Counted from the first letter of the stretch, positions 2,820-38,772 are shown. The stretch is 64,000 bases of DNA from Desulfobacteraceae bacterium (GCA_011390345.1 JAABSP010000022.1:6206-70205); one strand, 5' to 3'. The notes: a model not told the origin generated them from the sequence alone. Translations and numbers: made by a program.

Positions 2820-2831
2820 ATATGGGCGATT

Positions 2832-21124: not shown

Positions 21125-21208
21125 ATCAAGGCCGATCTGGGGCCGCCTGTCCTATTTTGCCCCACCCGACGCAATCTTCCGGTTTTATAGTGATCCCAAT
21201 AAATTGAA

Positions 21209-21231: not shown

Positions 21232-21380
21232 GGCAAATCTTCCGGGACAATCTCTTTCCGTCATTCCTTATTTTCAGCCTTTTCTCTTCTTTATCTCAAA
21301 AAATTTCCCACATAAGCCTTTAAATATATAACAAATTATAAATCCAGACCGCCACGGATATCCTTCTTGTCAGAAATACA

Positions 21381-21395
21381 GGCACATCCTTTGCA
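21381..21395 (+). promoter_or_regulatory. Sigma-54 (-24/-12) promoter candidate at the head of the DUF362/mft/lar/aor block
   Basis: aGGCACatcctTTGCAt has exact GG-N10-GC spacing and one mismatch to TGGCAC-N5-TTGCA. It lies about 120 nt upstream of the first DUF362 start. Confidence 0.55.
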
Positions 21396-21516
21396 TATAG
21401 CCTCCACTTTGAGAACCAAAGGGAAAGGAGGGATGCAGAAACCGCAGAACATGGAAGTTTTGCACAGGCAAAGGGCGATTGATTTTTGAAATCGGAGAAT
21501 GAAAGGAGGAGACCCG

Positions 21517-23016: not shown

Positions 23017-23136
23017 ACCCGGCAGGTGAGTTGTAGCTGATTGCAGGAGAAAAGCCGGGGGAGGCAATCTGCCTTCTCCGGCCCCTTTCCCGAGCATAAA
23101 AACCGAATTAAGATCGCAATCGGGAGACAGAGATCC

Positions 23137-24072
23137 ATGAGCGAAGTAGTATGGGTGGATACCCGGCAGATGAGCTTTGAAAATTCGATCCGTCACAAGC
23201 TTCTCCGCCTGTCCGAGGCCGCAGGGATCATCGAGGATCTTTTGGAATCGATGCAGGTGGCGGTGAAGATCAACACCGCGGAAGAGGGGTATGAGTATGG
23301 CCTTCGGCCCAACTTCATCCAGGTCTTTACTGAGGTCATGGAGGAGAAGACCCTCAAATGCCCCCTGATCTGTGACGGACAGCGTCTGGTGGACTACTGG
23401 CGAAAGGCCCGGGGGAATACCTTTCTGAAGACGGCCGGGGCCAGGGGATACAGCAAAGAGACTCTGGGAGGGCTTTTTCTCCTAAACGGCGGATTTTCGG
23501 GCGATGAGGGGGATCTTTATCCCTGCGGCTCGACCGAATCGGAGCTGGGCGGGGTCGAAGTGGGGGCCGCGGTCTGCCGGGCCGATGCGCTACGGGTGCT
23601 CTCCCATGTGACTTTGCACCCGCTCTTTGGAATAAATGGTGCGCTGTTGAACAGCGGGTTTGAATGTCTGTCGGGCAGGGCAAGGACCCGGGTGCTGCAG
23701 GGGTTGAGCCCTTATATCTTCAACGGCAGCCGGCCCGGAAGGGATCAGGTGAATGGATTTCAGCGGCGGGCTCTGGAGAGCTGTTTCGGGGTTCGGACCG
23801 CTGTTGAAGAGCGAATCTTTTACGTCAACTATCTCTGGGATGTTACGCCCCAGCCCGAATATTATCCTTTCAGCGAGGGGCCGGTGGCGGAGAATATCGG
23901 CTTTCTCGCCTCCAATGACCCGGTGGCCCTGGACGGCGCCACTTGGGCACTGATAACAAAACAGAATCCCGCAATCGAGGAGATGGTCGGTGTCGATGTT
24001 CCCGGTCTGATCCGAACAGCGGCCGATATGGGGCTGGGCAGTGCGGAATGGTCGATCCGGCAGATCTCCTGA
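23137..24072 (+). CDS. Second DUF362-family protein (no Fe-S insert)
   Basis: …MQVAVKINTAEEGYEYGLRPNFIQVFTEVMEE… and …ASNDPVALDGATWALI… are DUF362-like. I used the ATG at 23137 within ORF 23041..24072. Confidence 0.7.
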   Translation: MSEVVWVDTRQMSFENSIRHKLLRLSEAAGIIEDLLESMQVAVKINTAEEGYEYGLRPNFIQVFTEVMEEKTLKCPLICDGQRLVDYWRKARGNTFLKTAGARGYSKETLGGLFLLNGGFSGDEGDLYPCGSTESELGGVEVGAAVCRADALRVLSHVTLHPLFGINGALLNSGFECLSGRARTRVLQGLSPYIFNGSRPGRDQVNGFQRRALESCFGVRTAVEERIFYVNYLWDVTPQPEYYPFSEGPVAENIGFLASNDPVALDGATWALITKQNPAIEEMVGVDVPGLIRTAADMGLGSAEWSIRQIS

Positions 24073-24121: not shown

Positions 24122-25129
24122 ATGACGATGAACCGAAGCGAGTTCGTCGATCGCCAGAAACAGCAATTGATGAATGAGGGGGCCATCGCGGATGCCCTTC
24201 AGTATGTCCGGTACAAGATCGCGATCCTCTCCGGAAAGGGCGGCGTGGGAAAGACCGCGGCCACGGTGAACCTCGCGGCCGCACTGCAGAAGGCCGGGAA
24301 CCGGGTGGGGATCTTTGACGCGGATCTCCACGGCCCCAGCATTCCCAAGATGCTCGGGATCAAAAAGGAGCAGGCAAGGCTCAACGGCGCGTTCTGGCTC
24401 GATCCTGTGGTCACGGCAACTGGAATCAAGGCGCTCTCGGTTGCCCTCTTCTGGCCCGGGGAGATGACCCCGGTGATGTGGCGGGGCCAGACCAAGAGCC
24501 GCACCATTCGCCAACTCCTTTCTGCGGCCAAATGGGGGGGGCTCGACTATCTGCTGGTCGATCTTCCTCCGGGAACCGGGGATGAGCCTATCGCGATTTT
24601 AAAGTCGATCCCGGATCTGGACGGCGTCATCATCGTCACCACGCCCCAGGAGGTCTCCACCATGGTCTGCTCCAAGGCCATCAACGCCTCCGTCACACTG
24701 GGGGCCAAGGTGCTGGGCCTCATTGAGAACATGAGCCACTACACATGCAGTTGCGGTGATACGGTCTATCTCTTCGGTAGAGACAAGGGGAAACAGCTTG
24801 CGCGGATGATGGAGATCCCGTTTCTGGGGTCAGTCCCCATCGACCCGCAATTCTCCGAGGCGGCCGATACCGGGGTTCCGGTGGTCGATCTCCATCCCCA
24901 AAGCCTGACGGCCACTTCCTTTACCAGAATCGCGGATACCCTGAGCAGCCAACTCCCCCCAAAGGCGGTCAAGGAGGCCCCGCCCGAAGAGCACAAGCCC
25001 TGCCCCGGAGCCAGCCATCATCACGGCCACGGAGAGGGAAGTCACTGCAGCCACGGCCATATCCATGCCAGGCCCAAGGAGGAGGACGGGTGCGGGTGCG
25101 GACATGGCCATGAGCATCATCGGCATTGA
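24122..25129 (+). CDS. Mrp/NBP35(ApbC)-family P-loop ATPase with a C-terminal His/Cys-rich tail
   Basis: The deviant Walker A is ILSGKGGVGKT, followed by DLPPGTGDE and MSHYTCSCGD. The tail reads CPGASHHHGHGEGSHCSHGHIHARPKEEDGCGCGHGHEHHRH. Confidence 0.85.
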   Translation: MTMNRSEFVDRQKQQLMNEGAIADALQYVRYKIAILSGKGGVGKTAATVNLAAALQKAGNRVGIFDADLHGPSIPKMLGIKKEQARLNGAFWLDPVVTATGIKALSVALFWPGEMTPVMWRGQTKSRTIRQLLSAAKWGGLDYLLVDLPPGTGDEPIAILKSIPDLDGVIIVTTPQEVSTMVCSKAINASVTLGAKVLGLIENMSHYTCSCGDTVYLFGRDKGKQLARMMEIPFLGSVPIDPQFSEAADTGVPVVDLHPQSLTATSFTRIADTLSSQLPPKAVKEAPPEEHKPCPGASHHHGHGEGSHCSHGHIHARPKEEDGCGCGHGHEHHRH

Positions 25130-25212
25130 GGTTGGTGGCTGGTGAATAGTGGCTGGTGGCTGGTGGTTGGTGACTGGTGGCTGGTGGTTGGTGACTGGTG
25201 GCTGGTGGTGAA
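25130..25212. repeat. G/T-rich tandem repeat (about 21-bp unit ggttggtgactggtggctggt)
   Basis: Two perfect 21-bp copies plus degenerate flanking copies start immediately after the Mrp stop codon. Confidence 0.85.
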
Positions 25213-25626: not shown

Positions 25627-26055
25627 ATGGAACAGCATGCGACGGCGCAGGAGCCGGCGGAACAGTGTCCGGAAGCTGTAGAGAATGGCGCAGGGATCAC
25701 CGAAGAGATGAGCCGGGAGATGGTCGAGGATATTACCCGGCTCGGCATTCGCACCGCGGTGCTGCTCAGAGGGGTGATGCTTCAGAAGGTGGATCGGGAG
25801 ACCCTCCGGTGGGGGCTGGACGAGCTGGGGGTGGATGATCTGATGGCGCGGTATATCGGCCCGCTGCTGAATGTACCGGATCATGTGCAACTGCTGAACC
25901 TGCTCTACCTCGTCTACGGCCTCCACGGACAGATCGACTATCAGATCCGGGAGTACGGGCTCGACTCTTTGAAGGATGACCTTCAGGAGATCAATTTCAG
26001 CCTGCAGCAGATCGGCGAGCAGTTCCGGCTCGAAGAGTTGAAGGTGGCGATTTAA
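25627..26055 (+). CDS. Hypothetical protein (142 aa)
   Basis: It is an intact ORF 12 nt after the previous stop. I recognised no family. Confidence 0.5.
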   Translation: MEQHATAQEPAEQCPEAVENGAGITEEMSREMVEDITRLGIRTAVLLRGVMLQKVDRETLRWGLDELGVDDLMARYIGPLLNVPDHVQLLNLLYLVYGLHGQIDYQIREYGLDSLKDDLQEINFSLQQIGEQFRLEELKVAI

Positions 26056-26094: not shown

Positions 26095-26907
26095 ATGAAA
26101 CTGAAAGAGAAGGTGGCCATCGTCACCGGCGGGGCAAGGGGCAACGGATTTGCCGCGGCAAAGTGCATGGCCCAAGAGGGTGCGCATATCGTCATCGCGG
26201 ATATCTGCGAGGATATGGAGACGATTCCGTATAAGATGACCACCGCAGAGGGGATGGAAAAGGCGGTGGGAGAGATCCAGTCCCTGGGCGTGAAGGCGCT
26301 TGGAATCAAGTGCGACGTGCGCAAGGCGGCCGATGTGGAGCAGATGGTGGAAAAGGTGATCGCCGAGTTCGGGAAGATCGACATCCTGGTCAACAACGCA
26401 GGCAACACCTCTATGGTCGCGATCGCGGATATGGACGAGAAGACCTGGGATGAGGTGCTCGACACTCATCTCAAAGGGATGTACCTCTGCTGCCGGTATG
26501 CGCTGCCCCATATGATCAACGCCCATTCCGGATGCATCATCAGCATCTCCTCGGTGGGAGGGCAGCGGGGATTCGGCATGGGAGGCCACTACTGTGCAGC
26601 CAAGCACGGGATCATCGGCCTGAACAAATCGATCGCGATGGAGGTGGCCGATCACAATATTCGCGCCAATGTGGTCTGTCCGGGAACGGTCTGGACAGAC
26701 ATGATGAAGGGGATCGCGTCCTATTTTGGAATGGACGACGAGGCCGAGGCCAAAGAGCAGTTCTTCGCGGGACACATGATCAAAGATCCCGAGGTCGCGC
26801 CGGAGGACATCGGCCGGGCCGTCTGCTGGCTGGCCACCGACGACACGCGGTGCATCACCGGAAACATGATCACCGTGGACGGCGGCTGGACTGCGCAGGC
26901 CCCATAA
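26095..26907 (+). CDS. SDR-family oxidoreductase of the mycofactocin-coupled type
   Basis: TGGARGNG is the Rossmann motif. The characteristic insertion IVIADICEDMETIPYKMTTAEGMEKAV resembles the DIC…VPYPMATPEDL insert of mycofactocin-associated SDRs. The catalytic motif is YCAAK. The gene lies immediately upstream of mftA. Confidence 0.8.
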   Translation: MKLKEKVAIVTGGARGNGFAAAKCMAQEGAHIVIADICEDMETIPYKMTTAEGMEKAVGEIQSLGVKALGIKCDVRKAADVEQMVEKVIAEFGKIDILVNNAGNTSMVAIADMDEKTWDEVLDTHLKGMYLCCRYALPHMINAHSGCIISISSVGGQRGFGMGGHYCAAKHGIIGLNKSIAMEVADHNIRANVVCPGTVWTDMMKGIASYFGMDDEAEAKEQFFAGHMIKDPEVAPEDIGRAVCWLATDDTRCITGNMITVDGGWTAQAP

Positions 26908-26949: not shown

Positions 26950-27090
26950 ATGGAAAAAGAGGCGAGAGAGAAGAACCTGCAGGAGAAGGAGACGGAGCAG
27001 CGTCCCCAGGATACCGTAGAGATTCCGGCCATCCTCGAGGAGGTCAATATCGAGGAGCTTGCTGTGGACGGTATCTGCGGCATCTACTAA
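26950..27090 (+). CDS. mftA: Mycofactocin-type precursor peptide (46 aa), not in the ORF track
   Basis: My own translation gives MEKEAREKNLQEKETEQRPQDTVEIPAILEEVNIEELAVDGICGIY*. AGGAGG lies 11 nt upstream. The C-terminus parallels the canonical MftA …IDGMCGVY. mftB and mftC follow directly. Confidence 0.8.
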   Translation: MEKEAREKNLQEKETEQRPQDTVEIPAILEEVNIEELAVDGICGIY

Positions 27091-27230: not shown

Positions 27231-27512
27231 ATGCGATCCAATACGGTTTACCACCTGAAGACCGGGGTGCAGGTCCGGCCCGAGGTCTTCGGACTCCTCT
27301 TCTACAACTATCGGGGGCCCAGGCTCTATTTCGTGCCGTCCAAGGATCTGATCCCGTCGGAATTCTTCGGGGGAAAGGAGACCGTGGGGGATCTCGTGAC
27401 GGGCATCTGCAAACGGATGCCGTGGCCCGGGGATGTTGTGGGAAAAAAGATCCAGGAGATTCTGGACATGCTGGAAGGAAGGGAGCTGATCTATGGGGAA
27501 TCAGTATGTTGA
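27231..27512 (+). CDS. mftB: Mycofactocin biosynthesis chaperone MftB (PqqD-like RRE)
   Basis: …VQVRPEVFGLLFYNYRGPRLYFV… parallels the mycobacterial MftB segment VRPEPFGALLYHFGTRKLSFL. The size is 93 aa. Confidence 0.8.
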   Translation: MRSNTVYHLKTGVQVRPEVFGLLFYNYRGPRLYFVPSKDLIPSEFFGGKETVGDLVTGICKRMPWPGDVVGKKIQEILDMLEGRELIYGESVC

Positions 27513-28575
27513 TATGGGGCTTTCGGCCCCGGTAAACGTCACCTGGGAGGTCACCTTCGGCTGCAATCTCTCCTGTGTCCACTGCCTCTCCGATTCGGGA
27601 AGGCGGCGCGAAGGAGAGCTGACCACAGAGCAGTGCCGGGCGGTGATCGACGATCTTTCCCGAAACCATGTCTTTCAGCTCAACATCGGCGGGGGCGAGC
27701 CCTTCTCCCGCCCCGATTTTCTCGATCTGATGGATTACGCGCACGACCGGGGGATCGTCACCTGCATCAGCACCAACGGAACTTTGATCGACGAGAAGAT
27801 CGCCCGGGGTCTCGATCACCGGCTCGTTTACATCCAGGTGAGTCTGGACGGGGCAACCCCGGAATCCAACGATGCGATCCGGGGGAAGGGGAGTTTTGCC
27901 AGCGTGATGCGGGCATTGGAGCATCTTAAGGGGAGGGGGATCGAGGTGAGCATCAACTGTGTGCTGACCCGGCTCAGCTTTCCGGAGCTGGATAAACTCC
28001 ACGATCTGGCCGCGCATTACGGGGCAAAGCTGCGGGTTTCAAGGTTCCGGCCTTCGGGAAGGGGCAAGGATTCCTGGTCCGATCTCAACCTCTCCAGGGA
28101 TCAGATGGTATCCTTTTCCGAATGGCTCAACAGCCATCTTGGGGTTTCCACGGGAGATTCCTTCTTTTCCGTCTCAAGTGAGGAGCGAAGGTCATTGGGG
28201 CTCAACATGTGCGGCGCGTGCAAGCTCACCTGCTGCGTATCCCCCCAGGGGGAGGTCTACCCTTGCGCATTTTTGCAGGATGCCGATTTTCTTTCGGGAA
28301 GGGTTCCGGAGGACGACTTTGCCCGGATCTGGCGGGAGTCGCGCGTATTCCACTCCTTTCGGGAACTGGAGATCAAATCCTGCGAGAGCTGCCACCGGTT
28401 CGATCTCTGTCACGGAGGGTGTCCCGCGATCGCCTACCATACCCAGCGAAAGCTCGGTGTTCCGGACCCGGGATGTCTGGTAAACTGCGTAACGGTTAAA
28501 TCGATGAACACATTGGGAAATGAGTTGAAGAAAAAAGCAGGCGACGATATTCGTCCTGCGGCCGGATACGCATAG
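27493..28575 (+). CDS. mftC: Mycofactocin radical SAM maturase MftC (rSAM plus SPASM)
   Basis: GLSAPVNVTWEVTFGCNLSCVHCLSDSGRRREGELTTEQC…NIGGGEPFSRPDF is very close to the MftC N-terminal region. The SPASM cysteines are CGACKLTCCVSPQGEVYPC…C..C…CHGGC. An alternative start is the ATG at 27514. Confidence 0.9.
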   Translation: MGNQYVDMGLSAPVNVTWEVTFGCNLSCVHCLSDSGRRREGELTTEQCRAVIDDLSRNHVFQLNIGGGEPFSRPDFLDLMDYAHDRGIVTCISTNGTLIDEKIARGLDHRLVYIQVSLDGATPESNDAIRGKGSFASVMRALEHLKGRGIEVSINCVLTRLSFPELDKLHDLAAHYGAKLRVSRFRPSGRGKDSWSDLNLSRDQMVSFSEWLNSHLGVSTGDSFFSVSSEERRSLGLNMCGACKLTCCVSPQGEVYPCAFLQDADFLSGRVPEDDFARIWRESRVFHSFRELEIKSCESCHRFDLCHGGCPAIAYHTQRKLGVPDPGCLVNCVTVKSMNTLGNELKKKAGDDIRPAAGYA

Positions 28576-28577
28576 AG

Positions 28578-30101
28578 ATGCGTGCAGGAATTCTCAGCGG
28601 AGAGCTGACCCTCTCCCCCGGGGTCTCCCTTTTCCAGGGGCCCGACGCGGGGGTGCTGCTCCAGTCCGATCCGATGCGGGCTATCAAGGTCAACGCTGCG
28701 GCCGCGGGGATTCTTGCCCGCTGTCGAAAGGGATGGCGTATCGACGAAAACGCGGACGATCCGCTGCTGAACGCGGCGCTGCCCATGCTCGACCTTTTCA
28801 TTCAGGCCGGCATTCTTCAATGGAGCCCGCCCTCCGAGGGATTCACCCCCTTTGTCAGCATCGTGGTTCCGGTCTTCAACAGGGCTTCGGAGATCGAGGC
28901 CTGCATCCGCTCCCTGCTCGATCTCGATTATCCGGAGGATCTGCGGGAGATCATCGTGGTGGACGATGCTTCGGTCGATTCGACCCCGGATATGGTTTCG
29001 AAGTATCCGGTGCAATTGTTGAGAATGGCGGAAAACCGGGGCCAGTCGGCCGCGCGGAACCGGGGGGTGGAAGCGGCAAGAGGGGAGATCATCGCGTTCA
29101 CCGACAGCGACTGCATCGCAGATCCGAACTGGCTCAAAGATATTCTGCCCTTTTTTCGGGATGAACGGATCGCACTTGCCGGTGGCCTGGTGGATGCCTA
29201 TTACAAAAAGAGCTTTCTGGACCGGTACGAGGCGGCCCAATCCCCCCTCAACATGGGGGAAAAGCCGCTGATCGGTGCCGGAGACCGCTCCGTCTTCTAT
29301 GTCCCGACCTGCAACATCCTTTTCAGAAAGTCGGCCTATGGGGAGATCGGGGGCCTGAACGAGTCGATCCGGGTTGGGGAGGATGTGGATCTCTCCTGGC
29401 GCCTGCTGGCCCGGGGCCACCGGCTCCTCTATCTGCCCAGGGGCCGGGTACTTCACAAACACCGTTCCCGCTTCAAAGATGCCTTCTGCCGCCGCTTCGA
29501 CTACGGCACTTCCGAGCCGGCCCTCTATCTTGCGCATCAGCGGACCATCAAGCGGTTTCCGAGACAGCAGGGGGGTCTGCCATTCTTTGCTCTCTGCGGC
29601 ATGGGCTGTTTGACACTTCCCTGGCTCTTCTTTCCCGGGGCCGGACTGATTCTGCTGGGAGAGGCGCTTTACAAGCGGCGCCAGGCGTCAAAGATGCTGG
29701 ACGCGCCCCTCGCGTTTTACCCCATCTTCAAAGCAGTCCTCCGAAGCCGGTTTACCCTGACCCATTATCTCGCGCTTCACCTGACCCGCTACTATCTGCT
29801 GCCCATGATCGCGCTGGGGCTGATATTTCCGAAAACGATTCCAATACTTTCAGGGCTTGCATTTTTCCCCGCACTTGTGCTCTATTATCGGAAACGGCCG
29901 GATCTCAACTTTCCCCTCTTTGCCCTTTTTTTTCTGACGGAACAGGCATTTTATCAGGCCGGTGTGATGCGGGGATGTTTCAAGACCAGGTGCTTCAGAC
30001 CCTATCGGATCACCTTTTCCGGCGCGGGTTTTCTGAAGAAGAGCCCGGAAAAATGGCGAAAGATATGGCCATTTCGAAAAAAGATGGGGGAGAGCGTTTG
30101 A
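28578..30101 (+). CDS. mftF: Mycofactocin-system glycosyltransferase MftF (GT2 with C-terminal membrane region)
   Basis: The GT2 core is VSIVVPVFNRASEIEACIRSLL…IIVVDDASVDST…ENRGQSAARNRG…FTDSDC…GEDVDLSWR. It has an N-terminal PqqD-like region and C-terminal TM helices, and it sits right after mftC. Confidence 0.8.
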   Translation: MRAGILSGELTLSPGVSLFQGPDAGVLLQSDPMRAIKVNAAAAGILARCRKGWRIDENADDPLLNAALPMLDLFIQAGILQWSPPSEGFTPFVSIVVPVFNRASEIEACIRSLLDLDYPEDLREIIVVDDASVDSTPDMVSKYPVQLLRMAENRGQSAARNRGVEAARGEIIAFTDSDCIADPNWLKDILPFFRDERIALAGGLVDAYYKKSFLDRYEAAQSPLNMGEKPLIGAGDRSVFYVPTCNILFRKSAYGEIGGLNESIRVGEDVDLSWRLLARGHRLLYLPRGRVLHKHRSRFKDAFCRRFDYGTSEPALYLAHQRTIKRFPRQQGGLPFFALCGMGCLTLPWLFFPGAGLILLGEALYKRRQASKMLDAPLAFYPIFKAVLRSRFTLTHYLALHLTRYYLLPMIALGLIFPKTIPILSGLAFFPALVLYYRKRPDLNFPLFALFFLTEQAFYQAGVMRGCFKTRCFRPYRITFSGAGFLKKSPEKWRKIWPFRKKMGESV

Positions 30102-30108: not shown

Positions 30109-30206
30109 TTTGAATACAACTTTGAATACAACAGGGGAAATGGGCGCGGATCGCGGCATGGATCACAGCACGGATCGGAAAACGGATCGGAAAACGGATC
30201 ACAGCA
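30109..30206. repeat. Phased 12-bp repeats between mftF and larE (2 x tttgaatacaac, then five GGATC cores exactly 12 bp apart)
   Basis: The GGATC cores start at 30148, 30160, 30172, 30184 and 30196. The units are arranged A-B-B-A (ggatcacagca / cggatcggaaaa x2 / cggatcacagca) and end at the larE ATG. Confidence 0.9.
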
Positions 30207-31039
30207 TGAACCGCAAATACGAGGCGCTCAAAGAAATCCTGCGGCAGATGGATCGGGTCCTGCTTGCCTTTTCCGGCGGGGTGGACAGCGCGTTTCTGCT
30301 GCGGGTCGCATCTGAAGAATTGAACGGAAATCTTCTTGCAGTGACAGCCATTTCAGAGACCACCCCCGCACATGAGCAGGAGGAGGCCGTTCGAATTGCA
30401 GCACTCTGCAACGCTCAGCACCTGACGGTGGAGACCCATGAGCTGAATGACCCCGAGTTCACATCGAACCCGGAAGAGAAGTGCTACATCTGCAAAAAGT
30501 ACCGCTTCGGCCTGCTGGCGGATCTGGCGGTGGAGAAGGGGTATCCGGTCGTGATCGACGGCACCAACGCGGATGACAGCAAGGATTTCCGGCCCGGGAT
30601 GCGGGCTCTTCGGGAACTCTCGGTGCGAAGCCCCCTGGCCGAGGCCGGGCTGACCAAATCCGAGATCCGGGCACTTTCAAAACAGCTCGACCTGCCCACA
30701 TGGGACAAGCCGGCCTATGCCTGTCTGGCCACCCGCATCCCCTGCGGCAGTTCCATCACCGGGGAAAGGCTTTCCCGGATCGACAGAGCCGAAGACTTTT
30801 TAAGGGGGTTGGGCGTCAAAGGTCAGGTGCGGGTTCGGGATTACGGGGAGATGTGCCGCATCGAAAGCGCGTCCGACATGATCCAGACGATCGCGGCCCC
30901 CGAAATCCGGGAGCAGATCGTGAACCATTTTTCAAAAATCGGATATAAGTTCGTGACCATCGACCTTGCCGGATACCGGATGGGAAGCGTGGTGCGGCAG
31001 TCTGCGCCGGAACAGAATGGATCGAAACAAGGCCGATAA
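30206..31039 (+). CDS. larE: LarE, ATP-dependent sulfur transferase of nickel-pincer nucleotide (NPN) cofactor synthesis
   Basis: The PP-loop is LLAFSGGVDSAFLL. The Cys set (CYICKK, …YACLATRIPCGS) is of the type reported for Fe-S-binding LarE homologues. I chose the ATG at 30206 so the N-terminus matches LarE spacing before SGGxDS. Confidence 0.85.
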   Translation: MNRKYEALKEILRQMDRVLLAFSGGVDSAFLLRVASEELNGNLLAVTAISETTPAHEQEEAVRIAALCNAQHLTVETHELNDPEFTSNPEEKCYICKKYRFGLLADLAVEKGYPVVIDGTNADDSKDFRPGMRALRELSVRSPLAEAGLTKSEIRALSKQLDLPTWDKPAYACLATRIPCGSSITGERLSRIDRAEDFLRGLGVKGQVRVRDYGEMCRIESASDMIQTIAAPEIREQIVNHFSKIGYKFVTIDLAGYRMGSVVRQSAPEQNGSKQGR

Positions 31040-31115
31040 ACCGGGGCCGATAAACCGGAGCGGATAAATAAAGACCGATAAATAAATGCGGAAAAATGCG
31101 GTTAAATAAGGAGAA

Positions 31116-31919
31116 GTGATGGACAGCCAATATCTGAAGGGCCTGCTGGAGCAGGTGAAGAGCGGCCGTATGAATACGGACGCGGCCATGGAAGCCTTGA
31201 AGGATCTCCCCTTCGAGGATCTCGGATATGCCAAGGTGGACAACCACCGGTGCGTGCGAAACGGTGTGCCCGAGGTGATCTACTGCGAAGGAAAGACCGT
31301 CTCCCAGATCAAAGGGATCATCGCCCGGATCGCGCGGCACAATTCCAATATACTGGCCACCCGCGCGGACCCGGAGGTCTATGAGGGCATCCGGGAGGAG
31401 ATCGAAGACTGCGTTTACCATGAGATGGCCCGGATCGTTGTGGTGAAGCCGAAGGAAGTCGAGAGCATCGGCAATATCGCGGTGGTCTCTGCGGGAACCT
31501 CGGACATCCCGGTGGCCGAAGAGGCCGCAATCACAGCCCAGACTTTGGGCAATCACGTCAACCGGATCTATGATGTGGGCGTCGCGGGTATCCATCGGAT
31601 TCTCCATGCCAGAAAGGATCTTTTTCAGGCCAATGTGGCCGTGGTGGTAGCGGGGATGGAGGGGGCACTGGCCAGCGTCGTGGGCGGACTCGTCTCCTGC
31701 CCGGTCATCGGGGTTCCCACCAGCATCGGATACGGGGCCAGCTTCGGCGGGATCTCGGCCCTGCTGACCATGCTCAACTCCTGTGCATCCGGGGTCTCTG
31801 TGGTCAACATCGACAACGGCTTCGGCGCAGGATATCAGGCGAGCCTCATCAACCGGACCGCCCTGAAATCCCTGCCCAAATCGGACACCGAACCGGTCTC
31901 CCTTGCAAAGGTCTGCTGA
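31116..31919 (+). CDS. larB: LarB, NaAD carboxylase/hydrolase (PurE-like)
   Basis: …LPFEDLGYAKVDNHRCVRNGVPEVIYCEGKT… and …VVSAGTSDIPVAEEA…VAGMEGALASVVGG… are typical LarB segments. Confidence 0.9.
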   Translation: MMDSQYLKGLLEQVKSGRMNTDAAMEALKDLPFEDLGYAKVDNHRCVRNGVPEVIYCEGKTVSQIKGIIARIARHNSNILATRADPEVYEGIREEIEDCVYHEMARIVVVKPKEVESIGNIAVVSAGTSDIPVAEEAAITAQTLGNHVNRIYDVGVAGIHRILHARKDLFQANVAVVVAGMEGALASVVGGLVSCPVIGVPTSIGYGASFGGISALLTMLNSCASGVSVVNIDNGFGAGYQASLINRTALKSLPKSDTEPVSLAKVC

Positions 31920-31923
31920 AAAG

Positions 31924-33123
31924 ATGAAAATCGCCTATTTCGACTGTTTTGCCGGGGCCAGCGGCGACATGATTCTCGGCGCGCTGCTGGATGCGGGTCT
32001 GGAACTGGAAAGCCTGAAAAATGAGGTTGCAAAGATAGGCCTCGACCGGTATGATCTCGGAGTGGAACCCGTGGTGAAACGGGGGATCGGCGGGACCAAA
32101 GCCATCGTCTCCGTGGACGAGGATCATCATGGCCACCACCATCGCCACCTGCGCCATATCGAGGAGATCATCAACGGCAGCACCCTCGATGACCGGGTCA
32201 AGGAAAAAAGCCTTGCCATCTTCCGCCGCCTTGCCGAGGCCGAAGCCAATGTCCATCGCACCTCTGTCGAGAGTGTCCATTTTCATGAAGTGGGCGCGAT
32301 GGATGCTATCCTCGATGTGGTCGGATCTGTGATCGGCTTTCATCTGCTGGGGATCGAAAGGATCTACTGCTCGCCGTTCCATGTGGGATGCGGGACCATT
32401 CATTGTGCCCATGGTCTGCTTCCGGTTCCTGCCCCGGCAACCGCAGCGCTGACGGTCGGGTTTCCGGTCTATTCTAACGGCGTAAAGGGGGAACTGCTCA
32501 CGCCCACGGGCGCGGCCATATTGACGACTCTGGCCCAGGGTTTTGGGCCCATGCCGGCCATGACCGCGGAACAAATCGGCTACGGCGCAGGGACAGCAGA
32601 TCCCGAGGAGATTCCCAACCTGCTGCGGGTGACCATCGGGGAGAACGCTTCAAGTGATGGGCTGGACCAATATGAGGCCGAATCCATCTGCGTTCTGGAG
32701 ACCAATATCGACGACATGAACCCCCAGCTTTATGAAAATCTGATCGAGAAGGTACTGGCCGCGGGCGCGGTCGATGTCTCTCTTGCCCCGGTTCAGATGA
32801 AGAAGAACAGGCCCGGCACAATGGTGACGGTCCTCTGTTCCCACGACCGTCTTGCAACCCTTTCCGATCTGCTGCTGAGGGAGACGACATCCATCGGACT
32901 TCGCTGGCGGACCGATTCGAGGATCATGGCCCGGCGGACCTTCCGGGAAATCGACACCCCCTACGGCCCCATAAAGGTGAAGGTGGCCCAAAAAGGGGAG
33001 GAGATCATCAATATAATGCCCGAATATGAAGACTGCAGACGACTGGCCGCGGAAAAGGGGGTTCCCCTGAAAACCGTGATCGAGGCCGCTGCTGTTGCTG
33101 CAAAGTCGGATTTGGAGCCATAA
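31924..33123 (+). CDS. larC: LarC, nickel insertase for the NPN cofactor
   Basis: MKIAYFDCFAGASGDMILGALLDAG… is typical LarC. It has the His-rich region DEDHHGHHHRHLRH, followed by …HFHEVGAMDAILDVVG… and …MKKNRPG…. Confidence 0.9.
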   Translation: MKIAYFDCFAGASGDMILGALLDAGLELESLKNEVAKIGLDRYDLGVEPVVKRGIGGTKAIVSVDEDHHGHHHRHLRHIEEIINGSTLDDRVKEKSLAIFRRLAEAEANVHRTSVESVHFHEVGAMDAILDVVGSVIGFHLLGIERIYCSPFHVGCGTIHCAHGLLPVPAPATAALTVGFPVYSNGVKGELLTPTGAAILTTLAQGFGPMPAMTAEQIGYGAGTADPEEIPNLLRVTIGENASSDGLDQYEAESICVLETNIDDMNPQLYENLIEKVLAAGAVDVSLAPVQMKKNRPGTMVTVLCSHDRLATLSDLLLRETTSIGLRWRTDSRIMARRTFREIDTPYGPIKVKVAQKGEEIINIMPEYEDCRRLAAEKGVPLKTVIEAAAVAAKSDLEP

Positions 33124-33160
33124 GCAAAGAGGTTTAACCCAGAAAAAAAAGGGAGGAAAA

Positions 33161-34897
33161 ATGGACAAGATTCTTCGCATCAACATGGGACCGGACGGCG
33201 CACCGAGCGTAAAGGAAGAGGGCTTGGGAGACTACGCCGGACTCGGCGGAAGGGGCATGACATCGTCCGTGATCGGCAAAGAGGTGCCGGCGGACAGTCA
33301 CCCCCTCGGCGCAGAGAACAAGCTGGTCATCTCCCCGGGGCTGCTCTCCGGAACGGCCGCGGCTATGTCGGGCCGGATCTCGGTCGGCTGCAAAAGCCCC
33401 CTCACCGGAACCATCAAGGAGTCCAACGCGGGGGGTCAGGCCGCGCAGGTCATGGCCCGCCTAGGATATGCGGCCATCATTCTGGAGGGAAAGCCGAAAG
33501 CCGACACGCTCTACAAACTGATCATCAACAAGGACGGGGTGAAGCTGGAAGAAGACAACAGCCTGAAACTCCTAAACAACTATGAACTGGTGGATAAGCT
33601 CAAGGAGGCCTACGGCGAGAAGATCACCTGCATGACCATCGGATCTGCCGGAGAGCGGAAGCTCGGTTCGGCCACCATCGCGGTCACCGATATGGAGGTT
33701 CGCCCCACCCGCCACTGCGGCCGGGGCGGCACAGGAGCTGTGATGGGCGCCAAGGGCCTCAAGGCGATCATCTTCGACGACTCCGGCATGAAGATGCGCG
33801 CCCCCAAGGACCCCGAGGCATTCAAGGCCGCGAACAAGCGTTTCGTCGAGGGTCTGCGGAAGCACCCGGTCACGGGCGAAGGGCTTCCGGCCTACGGAAC
33901 CAACGTGCTGACCAACGTCCTCTCCGAGGCCGGCGGCTACCCCACCAACAACTTCAGCAAGGGAACCTTCGAAGGCGCATCAAAGATTTCCGGCGAGGCC
34001 CAGGCCGAGCTGGAGACCCAGAGGGGCGGTTCGGCCACCCACGGGTGCCATCGGGGATGCATCATCCGCTGCTCCGGAACCTTCAATGACAAGAACGGCC
34101 GATTCCTGACCAAGCAGCCCGAGTACGAGACCGTATGGGCCCACGGCGGCAACTGCGGGATCGACGATCTCGACGCGATCGCCATGATGGACCGGCTCGA
34201 CGATGATTACGGTCTGGACACAATCGAGATGGGCGCGAGCGTGGCTGTTGCAATGGATGCCGGGATCGCAAAGTTCGGCGACGCGGAGGCCGCGATCAAC
34301 CTCGTCAAGGAGGTGGGCAAAGGCACGGAGCTGGGCCGGATTCTCGGCAGCGGCGCGGCCGTGACGGGCCGGGTCTTCGGCGTGGAGCGGATTCCGGTGG
34401 TCAAGGGGCAGGCCATGCCGGCCTACGACCCCAGAGCTGTGCAGGGCATCGGCGTCACCTACGCCACCTCCACGATGGGCGCAGACCATACGGCCGGCTA
34501 CGCGGTGGCCACCAACATCCTCAAGGTCGGCGGCGATGTGGACCCCCTGAAGCCCGAAGGACAGGTGGAGCTTTCCAGAAACCTGCAGGTCGCGACGGCC
34601 GCGGTCGATGCCACCGGGATGTGCCTCTTCATCGCGTTTGCTGTCCTGGATCAGCCCGACACCTTCCAGGCCCTGATCGATATGCTCAATGCCTTCTACG
34701 GCCTCGAGATGACCGCAGACGACGTGAGCGAGCTGGGGAAGAAGATTCTGAAAGAGGAGCGGGAGTTCAACAAAAGGGCCGGCTTCACCGCAGAGCATGA
34801 CCGGCTGCCGCGCTTCTTCATTACCGAGCCTGTTGCGCCGCACAACGTCACGTTCCAGGTCTCGGACAAGGAACTCGACAACCTCTTCAACTGGTAA
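33161..34897 (+). CDS. aor: Aldehyde:ferredoxin oxidoreductase (tungsten/pterin AOR family)
   Basis: MDKILRINMGPDG…GLGGRGMTSSVI…, …GRGGTGAVMGAKGLKAI…, …CHRGCIIRC… and …CLFIAF… are AOR-family features. GGGAGG lies 6-7 nt upstream of the ATG at 33161. Confidence 0.9.
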   Translation: MDKILRINMGPDGAPSVKEEGLGDYAGLGGRGMTSSVIGKEVPADSHPLGAENKLVISPGLLSGTAAAMSGRISVGCKSPLTGTIKESNAGGQAAQVMARLGYAAIILEGKPKADTLYKLIINKDGVKLEEDNSLKLLNNYELVDKLKEAYGEKITCMTIGSAGERKLGSATIAVTDMEVRPTRHCGRGGTGAVMGAKGLKAIIFDDSGMKMRAPKDPEAFKAANKRFVEGLRKHPVTGEGLPAYGTNVLTNVLSEAGGYPTNNFSKGTFEGASKISGEAQAELETQRGGSATHGCHRGCIIRCSGTFNDKNGRFLTKQPEYETVWAHGGNCGIDDLDAIAMMDRLDDDYGLDTIEMGASVAVAMDAGIAKFGDAEAAINLVKEVGKGTELGRILGSGAAVTGRVFGVERIPVVKGQAMPAYDPRAVQGIGVTYATSTMGADHTAGYAVATNILKVGGDVDPLKPEGQVELSRNLQVATAAVDATGMCLFIAFAVLDQPDTFQALIDMLNAFYGLEMTADDVSELGKKILKEEREFNKRAGFTAEHDRLPRFFITEPVAPHNVTFQVSDKELDNLFNW

Positions 34898-34997: not shown

Positions 34998-35528
34998 ATG
35001 GAACCATTTGTGCTGACCCTTGAATCGACAGACTCCCCTTTTATCTTTTCCCTGCTCCAGGAAGGGGTGACGGTCCGGGTGCGGGCCGGCTGTTCGGTAA
35101 AGGATATTCTCTGCAACGATCTCCATATCGCGCCCGAATATGTGGAAGAGCGGATCAAGACGGTCTTTTTGAACAACAGGCCCGTGGACGATTATGAAAA
35201 TGCGCTGGTGCGGGAAGGGGACCGGCTGGCCCTTTCCGCGGCAATGCCGGGCCTGGTGGGGGCTACGCTCCGCCGGGGCGGAGTCCTATCGGCCTTTCGA
35301 AGCTCCATCACTCACCTTTCGGAGGAGCAGTGCGAATCCTTTGCCCAAGGGGAGGTGACCATCAAACTCTTCAACCTTCTGGTGCGGGAAATGGCAGCGC
35401 CGCTCCTGACGCATGGAATCATTGTGGAGGGGGAAAGACTTTGCAGGATGGCGAGCGATCTGAATATCGATACGGGAGAGCCTCTGGATGCCCTGGGGCC
35501 GGACCATCGGGTCCTGATTCGATTGTAG
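34998..35528 (+). CDS. Hypothetical protein with a possible N-terminal beta-grasp (ThiS/MoaD-like) domain
   Basis: …VTVRVRAGCSVKDILCNDLHIAPEYVEERIKTVFLNNRPVDDYENALVREGDRLALSAAMPG… resembles a ThiS/MoaD fold pattern, and a tail of about 80 aa follows. This assignment is weak. Confidence 0.35.
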   Translation: MEPFVLTLESTDSPFIFSLLQEGVTVRVRAGCSVKDILCNDLHIAPEYVEERIKTVFLNNRPVDDYENALVREGDRLALSAAMPGLVGATLRRGGVLSAFRSSITHLSEEQCESFAQGEVTIKLFNLLVREMAAPLLTHGIIVEGERLCRMASDLNIDTGEPLDALGPDHRVLIRL

Positions 35529-35608
35529 CGGAAGGGATAGCTTCTTCGGGCTTCAGGGCTGCCACCCTTTGGGGGAAATCACCTTTCTCCCGATCCCAGG
35601 GCCGGCAG

Positions 35609-36733
35609 ATGGCGCGGAACCTGGCCCAAAGGCTGGGGGGCACTCCCTCGGCCTGCTGGCTCTTCTGCTCCCCCGAGGCCGGGCTGGCAGAACTGCTCAA
35701 GGGGGTTCGGGAGGCCGCGGGCACCGATACGATCATCGGCTGCACCACCGACGGCGAGGTCTGTGAAGCCGGCTTCTGCACCAAATCGGCCGTCCTCGGC
35801 GGGATTCTCACCGACAGGATCGAATTCTCGGTTGTTGCCGTGGAGGGCATCGGCCGGGACCCAGAGGGGGCCGGCCGGGATCTGGCTCAAAAGCTTCCGC
35901 AGGGGACGAAATATCTCCAGCTCTTCTCCGACGGTCTGACCGGCAACGGCAACGCGATGCTTAGGGGGGTCGCATCCCATCTGGGAAATTCGGTTCCGGT
36001 GGGCGGCGGCACGGCCGGGGATGCGGGCAGGTTCCATCGCACCTGGCAGTTTATCGGAGACCGCCTTCTCACCGATGCCGCGGTCGCGATCGGCTTTTCC
36101 GGCGATTTCCGGCTCGGCACGGGCGTGGAGAGCGGCTGGATGCCCATTGGCCTTCCCAAGCGGGTGACCCGCGCTTCGGGCAATATCCTCTACGAGCTGA
36201 ACGGCGAACGGGCCCTCCGGGTCTATGAGCGGTTTCTGGGCAAACATGCCAGCCGCCTCCCCGGCGTTGGGGTGGAGTATCCCCTGCTGATCGTAGGCAA
36301 CTATGCCGGGTTTTCGGATGAGTCGGTCCGTCTGCTGCGAGCGACCATGGCCGTAGATCGGAAGAACGGTTCCATCCGATTTGCAGGCGACATCCCCGAG
36401 GGCGCGATGGTCTGCCTCACCTGCGGGGACAGGGCATCGGTGCTCAGGGCCGTGAGCAGCGCCGCAAGGCATGCTTTGGAAGATTTCAAAACAGATGCCG
36501 GCGACGGTTCCGAGGCCCTCTCCCCCGGCATCGTCTTCTCCTACTCCTGCATGGCCCGAAAGATCGTATTGGGCCGCAACACAAAAGAGGAACTCTCCCT
36601 GATCCGGCAGGCTGTCGGAACCCAGGTCCCGGTCATCGGATTCTATTCCTACGGAGAGTACTGCCGCACCCGCCGCGGAGGCCCAAGCCTTTTGCACAAC
36701 GAAACCGCCACTATCTCGGTTCTGGGAATATAA
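35609..36733 (+). CDS. FIST-domain sensor protein
   Basis: …CWLFCSPEAG…IIGCTTDGE…, …VPVGGGTAGD… and …VIGFYSYGE… follow the FIST_N/FIST_C pattern. The start is uncertain, so I used the first ATG after the previous gene. Confidence 0.7.
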   Translation: MARNLAQRLGGTPSACWLFCSPEAGLAELLKGVREAAGTDTIIGCTTDGEVCEAGFCTKSAVLGGILTDRIEFSVVAVEGIGRDPEGAGRDLAQKLPQGTKYLQLFSDGLTGNGNAMLRGVASHLGNSVPVGGGTAGDAGRFHRTWQFIGDRLLTDAAVAIGFSGDFRLGTGVESGWMPIGLPKRVTRASGNILYELNGERALRVYERFLGKHASRLPGVGVEYPLLIVGNYAGFSDESVRLLRATMAVDRKNGSIRFAGDIPEGAMVCLTCGDRASVLRAVSSAARHALEDFKTDAGDGSEALSPGIVFSYSCMARKIVLGRNTKEELSLIRQAVGTQVPVIGFYSYGEYCRTRRGGPSLLHNETATISVLGI

Positions 36734-36738
36734 GCCCT

Positions 36739-38772
36739 TTGCATTCCACAGACGACCCTGCCCAGTTGATCCGGGAGCTGGAGCGCCTCCTGGAGGTCTC
36801 GGAGCGGAAATCGGACATCCTCACGAATCTCCTTATGGAGGCCACTGCCGAGTTCGAGCAGGCCCTGGAGCGGGTCTCGGTCTCCGAGGCCAACTTCCGG
36901 GCCATCTTCGAGAACGCGCCCGAGGCCATCTACATCATCGACATCGAGACCCACGGCCTGCTCGACTGCAACCCCTTTTTGGCCAGATGGCTCGGCTATT
37001 CCCGGGAGGAGCTGCTCTCCATGCGGGTGGAGGATATCCTGGAGCCGGGCGCCAAAGGGGTTGGGGAGAACATTCGCAAAGTTGTGGATGATGGGCTGGT
37101 CTATATCCTGGAGCGGAGTTTTCGGAAAAAGAGCGGAAGGCTGGTGGAGGCCGAAGTCACCGGAACCCTGGTGAAGTATGAGGGGAAAGAGTGCTTTGTG
37201 GCCCTGGTGCGCGACATCACCGAAAGAAAGCAGATCGAGGCTTTGGGCCGGTACAAGGAACTCTTTGAAAACGTCAGCGACCCGGTCTTCATCAATGATG
37301 CGGAAGGCAATTTTTTAGAGGTCAATGATGTGGCCTGCGGCCGGCTCGGATACCCGAGAAAGAGGCTTCTGGAGATGAACATCCGGGATTTCCGGATTCC
37401 GGGGAGGGAGTCGATCTTTGTGGAAGGAAACGGCCGGCGTTTCGGCAACGGAAAGACCCTCCAGATGGATCTCATGACCCGGCAGGGGGAGGATGTCCCC
37501 TTCGAGATCCACGCGAGGCCCGTCAGCTTTCGGGGAAGCCCGGCCGTGCTCAGTGTGGCCCGGGATCTGACCATCCGGAAGAAGATGGAGGAGGTGCTGA
37601 TCAAGTCGGAGCGGCTCAAGGCTCTGGGGGAGATGGCCGGCGGGGTTGCGCACAATTTCAACAACCTTCTCCAGATGATCATGGGCGCGGGCGAGGCTGC
37701 TCTGGAAAAGCTCCGCTCCGGGCAGATCCGGGACAGCAGCGAAGCCATTGAAAACATCATCAACGCCTCCCGCCGGGGCACGGATATGGTCCGGCGGATC
37801 CGGGATTTCACTGTCTCCGGCATCGAGAACAGGCCTGAAGAGTATCGGATCTTCGATATCGGTGAGCTGATGGCTGAGGCCGTGGAGATCACAAAGCCTC
37901 TTTGGAAGAACATGGCCGACGGCGTAAAATATCGGCTCAACTATTTCCGGGGGCCCGGCTGCTTTGTCCGGTCCAATCCGTCGGAGCTGTACGAGGTGCT
38001 GGTCAATCTCATCAAAAACGGGCTGGAGGCGATGCCGGCCGGTGGACGACTCACCCTCTTCTCCTGGCTGGAGGGGGGGATGGTTCACCTCTCGATTAAA
38101 GATCAGGGGGAGGGCATTCCAAAGGAGAACCTCCAGCGGATCTTCGAGCCCTTCTTCACCACAAAGGGGCTCAGGAGCAGCGGCCTGGGGCTGGCCTCCA
38201 GCTACGGGATTGTAAAGAAGTATGACGGCGATATCGTGGTGGAGAGCGAGCCGGGAAAGGGCACGACCTTTACCCTGCTGCTGCCGCTGACCCAAAAGAT
38301 GGGCGCAGCCAGCGAGTCAAAGCCGGAGACGGGCCGTTCATCCCGCAATTCCCATATCCGGTTTCTCCTCATCGACGACGAGATCAACATCCTCCGGGCC
38401 ATGGAGATGTATTTCGAAGACTCGGAGATCGAGGTCATCTCTGCTAACAGCGGGCAAAAGGGAATGGAAGTGGTGGAAAAGGGGGATGTCGATCTGATCC
38501 TCTGCGATCTGGGGATGGACGACATGAATGGCCTGGAGATGGGAAAGCGGGTGCTGACCTTCTGCCTGGAGAGAAATCTGCCCAAGATCCCGTTTCTCCT
38601 CTATACCGGCATGATCCGGCAGCTCGACCTCAAGCGTCTGGAGGCGTCCGGGGTGGATCGGGTGGTGAGCAAGCCGATCTCCTATGAAGAACTTAAGGAG
38701 ATTATCTTTGGGACGGTTTCCCCTGCTTCATGTTCCCCATTCCGGAGAAGCGATAGACAAGGTGGCCGATGA
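36739..38772 (+). CDS. Hybrid sensor histidine kinase (2 x PAS, HisKA, HATPase, REC)
   Basis: The start is TTG. PAS segments are followed by the H-box GGVAHNFNNLLQMI, the G-boxes DQGEGI and GLGLASSYGIV, and a receiver (RFLLIDDE…DLILCDLGMDDMNG). Confidence 0.85.
   Translation: MHSTDDPAQLIRELERLLEVSERKSDILTNLLMEATAEFEQALERVSVSEANFRAIFENAPEAIYIIDIETHGLLDCNPFLARWLGYSREELLSMRVEDILEPGAKGVGENIRKVVDDGLVYILERSFRKKSGRLVEAEVTGTLVKYEGKECFVALVRDITERKQIEALGRYKELFENVSDPVFINDAEGNFLEVNDVACGRLGYPRKRLLEMNIRDFRIPGRESIFVEGNGRRFGNGKTLQMDLMTRQGEDVPFEIHARPVSFRGSPAVLSVARDLTIRKKMEEVLIKSERLKALGEMAGGVAHNFNNLLQMIMGAGEAALEKLRSGQIRDSSEAIENIINASRRGTDMVRRIRDFTVSGIENRPEEYRIFDIGELMAEAVEITKPLWKNMADGVKYRLNYFRGPGCFVRSNPSELYEVLVNLIKNGLEAMPAGGRLTLFSWLEGGMVHLSIKDQGEGIPKENLQRIFEPFFTTKGLRSSGLGLASSYGIVKKYDGDIVVESEPGKGTTFTLLLPLTQKMGAASESKPETGRSSRNSHIRFLLIDDEINILRAMEMYFEDSEIEVISANSGQKGMEVVEKGDVDLILCDLGMDDMNGLEMGKRVLTFCLERNLPKIPFLLYTGMIRQLDLKRLEASGVDRVVSKPISYEELKEIIFGTVSPASCSPFRRSDRQGGR

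Follow-up and report, generated by a model that had tools for sequence, protein, structure and literature searches.

Gene content of the locus

We analysed a 64,000-nucleotide stretch of a Desulfobacteraceae genome (GCA_011390345.1, JAABSP010000022.1:6206-70205; hereafter the window) that carries larE, larB and larC, the biosynthesis genes for nickel-pincer nucleotide (NPN), which LarA uses as its cofactor. On the plus strand, from ~21.5 to 34.9 kb, the genes form an unbroken run. This run is a cluster of 14 same-strand genes in the order DUF362a, DUF362b, Mrp-like ATPase, 108-aa protein, ~120-aa protein, short-chain dehydrogenase/reductase (SDR), mftA, mftB, mftC, mftF, larE, larB, larC and aldehyde:ferredoxin oxidoreductase (AOR), after which lie a FIST sensor and a PAS hybrid kinase (Table 1). 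All scores were judged against curated family cut-offs (NCBIfam, Pfam). An earlier note on this DNA had correctly placed the two DUF362 proteins, the SDR and two proteins of unknown function at 25288 and 25627. The mycofactocin cassette had gone unrecognised, and the block is really a lar/DUF362/variant mycofactocin supercluster with an AOR.

Table 1 Features of the gene cluster and its flanks (window coordinates)
Feature	Position	Strand	Basis and remarks
Sigma-54-like promoter element AGGCACATCCTTTGCA (-24 GG / -12 GC)	21380..21395	+	~100 nt 5' of first cluster gene
DUF362a, LarA-clan protein with ferredoxin-like 2x[4Fe-4S] insert, candidate NPN client	21499..23016	+	Pfam PF04015, E 9e-38
DUF362b, degenerate DUF362 paralogue	23134..24072	+	Pfam PF04015 55 bits; gene callers start at Met 23134, 311 aa
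Mrp/NBP35-type P-loop ATPase	24122..25129	+	Pfam ParA/NUBPL 282 bits
Small protein 1, conserved, 108 aa	25288..25614	+	Desulfobacterota orthologues in same position, E 1e-30 to 1e-43
Small protein 2, conserved helical bundle	25627..26055	+	Orthologues ~120 aa; likely start Met 25708
SDR, mycofactocin-coupled, nicotinoprotein type	26095..26907	+	NF040490 522 bits, cut-off 385
mftA, variant-type mycofactocin precursor, 46 aa, ends ...VDGICGIY	26950..27090	+	NF040489 49.5 bits, cut-off 30
mftB, RRE-type peptide chaperone, 93-aa ORF	27231..27512	+	TIGR03967 45 bits, cut-off 33; PF26520 MftB_chaperone weak
mftC, radical SAM/SPASM maturase	27493..28575	+	TIGR03962 392.8 bits, cut-off 265; Pfam Radical_SAM, SPASM
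mftF, mycofactocin glycosyltransferase (GT2)	28578..30101	+	TIGR03965 341.6 bits, cut-off 280; Pfam Glycos_transf_2
larE, ATP-dependent sulfur insertase, [4Fe-4S] (CxxC...C) type by motif	30206..31039	+	TIGR00268 304 bits, cut-off 150
larB, NaAD carboxylase/hydrolase	31116..31919	+	NF033503 299 bits, cut-off 175; Pfam AIRC (PF00731)
larC, CTP-dependent nickel cyclometallase, LarC1-LarC2 fused	31903..33123	+	Pfam Ni_insertion (PF01969) 507 bits
AOR, putative tungsten-type aldehyde:ferredoxin oxidoreductase family	33095..34897	+	Pfam AFOR_N 192 bits, AFOR_C 281 bits; gene callers start 33161
FIST-domain sensor (to 36733) and PAS hybrid histidine kinase/response regulator (36739-38772)	35330..38772	+	Pfam matches

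Complete lar genes and a window without LarA

The three lar genes are adjacent on the plus strand and intact, as the earlier note had described: each scores above its curated cut-off, and the translations are open and complete with no frame disruptions. In larC, both LarC1 (226 bits, cut-off 90) and LarC2 (151 bits, cut-off 50) fall in a single reading frame. The LarE translation contains the PP-loop AFSGGVDSAF (SGGxDS motif), a CYIC sequence and a distal Cys in ...YACLATR..., and the CXXC-C motif defines the [4Fe-4S]-dependent LarE subtype (PMC9283937). With SGGVDS, CxxC and the distal Cys in its translation, the window LarE is predicted to be of the catalytic [4Fe-4S] type, unlike the sacrificial Lactobacillus type. 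One gene caller extends LarE to 313 aa from a possible other start at 30098; the shorter form is favoured because the Desulfonema orthologue has 276 aa. Directly 5' of the larE ATG lies a 12-bp repeat in five copies (30147-30206), which the 313-aa form reads as TDRK-type repeats.

Consistent with the earlier note, which had recognised no LarA-type protein in the window, three lines of searching found none. No Lar_N was present among the 25 listed of 102 Pfam families matched by all 126 stop-to-stop open reading frames (ORFs) of at least 150 aa. Run on every window ORF of 40 aa or more, a hidden Markov model (HMM) of five LarA-superfamily proteins gave a best E-value of 5; its score of 585 bits on the LarA homologue of a related locus, L007, was obtained on one of its five training sequences and is not an independent control. 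By Pfam, 20 additional large ORFs, likewise without a LarA match, comprised only housekeeping and regulatory genes. The LarA-superfamily homologue of L007 (region 1388-6807; also in L008 and L048) itself lies below every curated LarAH equivalog cut-off; it is flanked by two AOR genes, beside GcvH and a lipoate-protein ligase and 8 kb from a DUF362a/b-Mrp core.

That some genomes carry larBCE without larA, a premise of the earlier note, is borne out by a 2024 mBio paper in which ~15% of genomes have larB/larC/larE but lack larA and the client is described as "yet to be identified". The identity of the NPN user in LarA-less organisms has been an explicit open question since 2014, restated in 2024.

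DUF362a as a candidate NPN enzyme

Judged from sequence and gene context, the NPN-using enzyme of the cluster is most likely DUF362a. Its true start is probably the GTG at 21517, giving 499 aa, which is preferred because the ribosome-binding site AAAGGAGGAG precedes this codon and homologues begin MAD or MAE. DUF362 (PF04015) and DUF2088/LarA_N both belong to Pfam clan CL0471, and the Desguin laboratory has used DUF362 as the outgroup for the LarA tree. DUF362a gave no Lar_N (PF09861) match; since PF04015 was its only Pfam match, it is filed here as a clan relative and not as a LarA homologue by family. NCBIfam holds no model for DUF362a, DUF362b or the small proteins, and a sequence search of the Protein Data Bank (PDB) with both DUF362 proteins returned no meaningful match.

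The earlier note had named both DUF362 proteins as possible NPN clients and suggested comparing them with LarA by structure and by profile. An AlphaFold2 (AF2) model of DUF362a (pLDDT 86.9, pTM 0.87) was searched against the PDB with Foldseek, and the top 19 matches were all LarA family structures (including 5HUQ, 6C1W, 2YJG, 6D6Z, 9EIA and 9Q3J/K), with E-values from 2.7e-5 to 1e-2, probabilities of 0.92-1.00 (1.00 in 14/19) and ~300-500 aligned columns. On the basis of this model, DUF362a is a distant LarA homologue with a predicted LarA-like two-domain alpha/beta fold. Among the best structural matches are the single-histidine LarA-like enzymes (9q2u, 9q3j, 9q3k), which are NPN enzymes beyond the classic two-His racemases; they differ from DUF362a in being DUF2088 members and octamers, without an Fe-S domain and in carbohydrate-related gene contexts (Protein Sci 2025, PMC12611868).

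Profile-profile alignment consistently placed DUF362a residues 191-237 on residues 154-200 of Lactobacillus plantarum LarA, as a single segment (global hhalign of the two families gave a nonsense alignment, and the local mode aligned the signature segment only). Within it, the residues AD, GG, K and H are invariant in both families and coincide, so that a signature AD...H-x9-K-x15-H is common to DUF362a and LarA with identical spacing. H211 corresponds to the catalytic acid/base His of LarA (H174), K221 to the NPN-tethering Lys (K184) and H237 to a nickel ligand (H200), while A199-D200 and G217-G218 correspond to A162-D163 and G181-G182, to which no LarA role is assigned. In a sample of 84 DUF362a-type sequences from different species (36-100% identity), H211, K221 and H237 are kept in every one, as are K94, H96, E99, D169, H207, K233, D347 and a C352-D-C354 motif.

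After H237 and ahead of its C-terminal half, DUF362a has a ferredoxin-like insert of ~60 aa with up to eight Cys (C257-x4-C-x5-C-x3-C-P ... C291-x2-C-x2-C-x3-C), of which C272, C291 and C294 are present in 84/84 sequences and C297 in 80/84; the other four are gone in a distant group. DUF362a is thus like the LarA/DUF2088 superfamily (PF09861 Lar_N plus PF21113 LarA_C) in clan, in predicted fold over ~350 aligned columns, in signature and in larB/larC/larE linkage, and unlike it in belonging to PF04015 and in having the ferredoxin-like insert, the CDC motif, a degenerate paralogue and an Mrp-type ATPase partner. Whereas LarA proteins are racemases and epimerases of 2-hydroxyacids, DUF362a is predicted to use NPN for net electron transfer.

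DUF362b adjoins DUF362a in the orthologous loci that we read gene by gene, and in the alignment its subfamily has lost residues that DUF362a keeps (H96 to N, D169 to N or G, K221 to L, and H237 to L). This pattern suggests that DUF362b is a probable non-catalytic partner subunit. Candidacy as an NPN client accordingly passes to the first of the two proteins, with its LarA-like fold, K/H signature and lar synteny, and not to the degenerate second.

Partner proteins and the possibility of another metal centre

The Mrp-like ATPase lies below the MrpORP and ApbC equivalog cut-offs (MrpORP 284 bits versus a cut-off of 450). Its Walker A motif is of the deviant kind, GKGGVGKT. Where orthologues have CxxC (CPxC or CRxC), the window protein has C-S-C, one residue shorter. 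It ends in a His/Cys-rich tail (HHHGHGEGSHCSHGH...GCGCGHGHEHHRH, ~25000-25126), and orthologues (L002, L014, L018, L021, L041, L042, L046, L049 and L050) have His-rich stretches that are C-terminal, internal or N-terminal depending on the lineage. These shifting stretches suggest repeated selection for metal binding, possibly of nickel, and the pattern would be typical of nickel chaperones. The ATPase is, by its sequence features, a probable metal or Fe-S maturation factor. A role as a CooC-like CxC nickel ATPase was also considered; the C-S-C of the window copy may point that way, and the orthologues have the standard CxxC.

Both small proteins, which the earlier note had listed as unknowns, proved to be conserved cluster members with orthologues in related loci. 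Small protein 1 is called as a gene in independent assemblies; no Pfam family (Hydro_N_hd 22 bits versus 27) and no NCBIfam family scored above cut-off. For small protein 2 we found 271 homologues, none with a Pfam domain; it is strongly conserved, has no conserved Cys or His, and is also found beside the core in Firmicutes and Actinomycetota. Its AF2 model (pLDDT 91.5) has five helices. Comparison of the model with the PDB gave no significant match and only generic four-helix-bundle matches (E >0.3), which allowed no function to be assigned.

Close orthologues of the AOR occur at differing positions in or beside the cluster in L014, L021, L027, L036, L039, L040, L041, L049 and L094, and ThiS/MoaD-like or molybdopterin genes accompany the AOR in some loci.

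These partners bear on an alternative in which DUF362a/b and the Mrp-like ATPase form an Fe-S or other-metal enzyme or maturation machine that does not bind NPN, with NPN used by another member such as a small helical protein or the SDR, or in which the DUF362 pair acts as an NPN carrier or insertase. A further metal site is suggested by the invariant C352-D-C354 motif, the ferredoxin-like insert and the ever-present Mrp/NBP35-type ATPase with its His-rich stretches; AOR and molybdopterin genes are often nearby, and the two small proteins, without known function, are as conserved as the enzyme. We nevertheless consider this alternative distinctly unlikely. The small proteins have neither Cys nor His conserved and resemble no fold known to bind a cofactor, and members of the AOR family have their own tungstopterin chemistry. 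The SDR, which the earlier note had also counted as a candidate client, was ruled out and is a poor candidate because it belongs to a mycofactocin-coupled nicotinoprotein family and carries an NAD-type glycine motif (VTGGARGNG). Within the cluster, DUF362a alone has a known NPN binder as a relative, and the Lys and His with which LarA holds NPN are precisely the ones it retains.

Conservation of the cluster across phyla

We collected DUF362a homologues and examined their contexts in public assemblies and in 80 species-representative genome loci, each searched with the window proteins. The closest species-representative locus, in a Desulfobacteraceae metagenome-assembled genome (MAG), is 89% identical, and the collection held no identical locus. 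For the counts we used 24 orthologous loci at species level (48-89% identity) whose downstream sequence reached 9 kb or more, scoring features within 10 kb. The Mrp gene is present in 24/24 of these loci, the SDR in 20/24, at least one lar gene in 19/24, MftC in 18/24 and all three lar genes in 16/24. Among distant loci (36-48% identity), larE is nearby in 8/22.

The supercluster occurs in many Desulfobacterota and in Firmicutes, Actinomycetota and Anaeromyxobacter, while Dehalococcoidia have a reduced form of it; the gene orders number at least six. In the cultured Desulfonema limicola (CP061799) it is identical gene for gene except for mftF. With a and b for the two DUF362 genes and s for small-protein genes, the order is a-b-Mrp-s1-s2-SDR-larE-larC/larB in Anaeromyxobacter, where mftABC are absent from the cluster, and a-b-Mrp-extended SDR-s1-s2-larB-larC-larE in Pelotomaculum thermopropionicum SI and Desulfofundulus. 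Other Firmicutes have larC upstream followed by a-b-Mrp-s-s-larE-SDR-(AOR-ThiS-larB)-mftC and an old yellow enzyme (OYE)/FAD protein, and Actinomycetota MAGs have a-b-Mrp-s-s-larE-larB-larC-SDR-mftC-OYE/FAD protein. The reduced Dehalococcoidia order is DUF362a, extended SDR, x, larE, SDR, with larE 2-4 kb from DUF362a. Because the linkage of lar genes to DUF362a outlasts many rearrangements and phylum boundaries, we take it as strong evidence for functional coupling.

In Desulfobaccales (L002-L004, 1-9318), a DUF362a/b-Mrp-small-protein core has no lar or mft gene within 10 kb and is preceded by an HdrA-like/MvhD/[NiFe]-hydrogenase module and an AOR with a polyferredoxin, a context that hints at an electron-bifurcation type.

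Alternatively, the lar genes could supply a canonical racemase or epimerase of the LarA family whose gene lies elsewhere in the genome, with the position of the lar genes beside DUF362 and mft genes reflecting co-regulation or hitch-hiking. Our LarA search covered the 64-kb window, and the closest relative at species level shows 89% identity. Firmicutes and other phyla commonly have LarA homologues, and in the L007/L008/L048 lineage a true LarA homologue lies near the DUF362 pair. This explanation leaves the cross-phylum linkage in 19/24 species-level loci and at least six gene arrangements unexplained, however. The 10-kb flanks of all lineages but that one are without LarA, larE stays close even to the distant Dehalococcoidia DUF362a genes, and the NPN-site residues are kept in DUF362a. 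We therefore regard a LarA elsewhere as an unlikely beneficiary of these lar genes, and DUF362a as their most likely client.

A variant mycofactocin cassette

The window MftA, MftB, MftC, MftF and coupled SDR all score above their cut-offs, as expected of the canonical mycofactocin system (MftA-MftG, Actinobacteria; PMC3023750). The window precursor has the C-terminal Gly-(Val/Ile)-Tyr core that is conserved in MftA. Here, unlike in that system, the precursor is variant-type (NF040489, ...GICGIY), the hosts are strict anaerobes, and the cassette is set between DUF362a/b-Mrp and larEBC-AOR. In four Logan assemblies, too, gene calling yields mftA at 46 aa. Neither MftD (FMN_dh) nor MftE (creatininase) was found among the listed Pfam families or 20 further ORFs of the window, or in related clusters whose genes were annotated; both may be encoded elsewhere in the genome. 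Likewise, mftG and mftR were not seen in the window or the annotated related clusters. The NCBIfam models "variant-type MftA" and "SDR subfam 3" indicate that the variant cassette itself had already been noticed by curators.

In Firmicutes and Actinomycetota loci (L042 17728-21328, L045 10118-12076, L049 18782-20746 and L050 19585-21336), mftC is followed by OYE/FAD proteins with no mftF. One or two such proteins are present, each an OYE-type oxidoreductase (FMN plus FAD/NAD(P)) of ~650 aa that is enoate- or dienoyl-CoA-reductase-like. P. thermopropionicum has its cluster without adjacent mftABC, a mycofactocin system with nine linked iron-containing alcohol dehydrogenases (Fe-ADHs) elsewhere, and one Fe-ADH just 5' of the cluster.

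The redox centre of mycofactocin is an alpha-keto amide/alpha-hydroxy amide couple (PMFT/PMFTH2), a 2H couple, with E0' of mycofactocinol at ~ -255 mV; in aerobes, the GMC-family flavoprotein MftG oxidises mycofactocinol, and other MFT dehydrogenases are suspected (eLife 2025, PMC11778925).

The composition of the cassette raises the possibility that DUF362a/b is an NPN client with a biosynthetic role, replacing MftD and possibly helping to replace MftE. It would oxidise the C-H of an AHDP-type alpha-amino lactam without O2 to an imine and then to an alpha-keto amide, passing electrons to Fe-S clusters. The cluster has the variant MftA, MftB, MftC and MftF with no FMN_dh-type MftD or creatininase-type MftE in the window listing or annotated related loci, both of which are also missing from some mycofactocin species (Haft 2011, PMC3023750). 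The hosts are strict anaerobes, and LarA-type hydride abstraction beside a carbonyl would suit the step chemically. On the other hand, the DUF362a/b-Mrp core and lar genes occur without adjacent mftABC in Pelotomaculum, Desulfofundulus and Anaeromyxobacter, and the core occurs with neither mft nor lar nearby in L002, L044 and L046. A whole second cofactor pathway for a single step would also be costly, and no replacement peptidase was pinpointed. The case also presumes a requirement of MftD for oxygen. This biosynthetic role therefore appears unlikely to us.

Proposed function and its significance

Our favoured reading is that larE-larB-larC are the cofactor-supply module of the 14-gene cluster, and that DUF362a/b, in concert with the variant mycofactocin system and the AOR, acts as an oxidoreductase dependent on NPN and Fe-S. 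We put its probability at roughly 0.45. DUF362a would hold NPN in a LarA-like pocket and abstract a hydride from a C-H beside a carbonyl, as LarA does on 2-hydroxy acids. The hydride would not be returned; its electrons would go singly through the [4Fe-4S] cluster or clusters to ferredoxin-level carriers, which would make DUF362a a net oxidoreductase and not a racemase. DUF362b, its cofactor residues lost, would be a structural partner, and the Mrp-like ATPase with its His-rich stretches would mature the metal sites.

The most speculative step concerns the substrate, proposed to be the alpha-hydroxy-amide/alpha-keto-amide centre of the co-encoded variant mycofactocin. The PMFT/PMFTH2 couple is chemically close to the 2-keto/2-hydroxy acids of LarA, which may make mycofactocin the most attractive substrate. 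In a recycling version, DUF362a/b would join the mycofactocin pool charged by the SDR to the ferredoxin shared with the AOR, as an anaerobic functional counterpart of MftG. The likeness to MftG (PMC11778925) is an analogy of proposed role alone, namely re-oxidation or reduction of the mycofactocin pool and a link to other electron carriers; fold and cofactor are unrelated (FAD versus the proposed NPN and Fe-S), and MftG feeds the aerobic respiratory chain. In a biosynthesis version, DUF362a/b would stand in for the missing MftD. Both versions remain alive because P. thermopropionicum has mycofactocin elsewhere and an Fe-ADH beside the cluster.

Several points weigh against this reading. The Foldseek TM-scores of DUF362a versus LarA structures are low (0.29-0.44), plausibly owing to the insert and domain orientation. 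The profile comparison succeeded in part: it aligned the signature segment with weak local statistics (E ~0.05, probability 1%), and residue matching to LarA is confident only at DUF362a 191-237, which does not include equivalents of the second catalytic His of LarA (His108) or of the residues that bind the carboxylate of its substrate (Arg75/Gln295/Lys298). The K/H signature is also present in all eight generic DUF362 proteins of the alignment and may serve another ligand, and the invariant CDC motif together with the Mrp partner could be signs of another metal centre. In five of the 24 orthologous loci the nearest 10 kb are free of lar genes, and a bona fide LarA homologue lies 8 kb from the DUF362 pair in one lineage (L007/L008/L048), the only one with a LarA homologue within 10 kb. 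Phylogenetic independence does not hold among the loci, and horizontal transfer may be spreading the cluster. NPN binding by DUF362a is inferred from homology and gene linkage.

Energetics add a further point of the same kind. Mycofactocinol at ~ -255 mV would be a poor reductant for ferredoxin, so that electron flow from mycofactocinol to ferredoxin would be uphill, and the direction and acceptor are uncertain.

A wider and more tentative proposal is that DUF362 (PF04015) is a second NPN enzyme family, in which a LarA-type site fused to [4Fe-4S] clusters gives net redox chemistry and couples the mycofactocin pool of anaerobes to ferredoxin in one pathway with the tungsten AOR. Such a family might account for at least part of the ~15% of genomes with larBCE and no larA. 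The locus and its relatives offer one concrete, testable non-LarA candidate for the NPN client, with residues to mutate (K221, H237 and H211), hosts that are in culture and completely sequenced (Desulfonema limicola; Pelotomaculum thermopropionicum, AP009389) and an E. coli larBCE co-expression system that already exists. If true, the proposal would extend NPN chemistry from racemisation to Fe-S-coupled redox catalysis and give a function to a large domain-of-unknown-function family. It would also reveal how anaerobes without MftD, MftE and MftG make or recycle mycofactocin, and join two recently discovered cofactors in one pathway. Our literature search found no paper linking DUF362 or mycofactocin to NPN; a Desulfobacteraceae proteogenomics paper does not mention the cluster, and none of the genera concerned appears in the JBC 2024 supplement.

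Regulatory and other features of the window

The element AGGCACATCCTTTGCA upstream of the cluster has one mismatch to the sigma-54 consensus TGGCAC-N5-TTGCW. The count of sigma-54-like matches in the whole window is not above chance (at least two matches in 45/100 shuffles), and for this element it is the position alone that is suggestive. Scans of the block for sigma-70 promoters and terminators gave hit numbers no higher than chance, and the window contains no tRNA and no Rfam family. The element lies in a low-GC spacer of ~1.1 kb (20380-21500) 5' of the cluster, which also holds apparent gene remnants, namely a short ribbon-helix-helix (RHH)-like ORF and an AAA-ATPase-like N-terminus (KLPIGISGFEKLIGEGYYYIDKTPFIKN, then a stop). 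A second region of lower GC (0.46) at 13400-15300 lacks any ORF of 150 aa or more and has neither a tRNA nor an Rfam match. The intergenic space that separates the Mrp gene from the first small gene contains 3.7 copies of a 21-bp unit, TGGTGGCTGGTGGTTGGTGAC (25133-25209).

At the other end of the cluster, FIST orthologues flank the related clusters in L024, L027, L034, L035, L036, L052 and L094, and the FIST protein and PAS hybrid kinase are likely dedicated sensors or regulators of the cluster. The window FIST protein is weakly NosP-like (70 bits, below cut-off).

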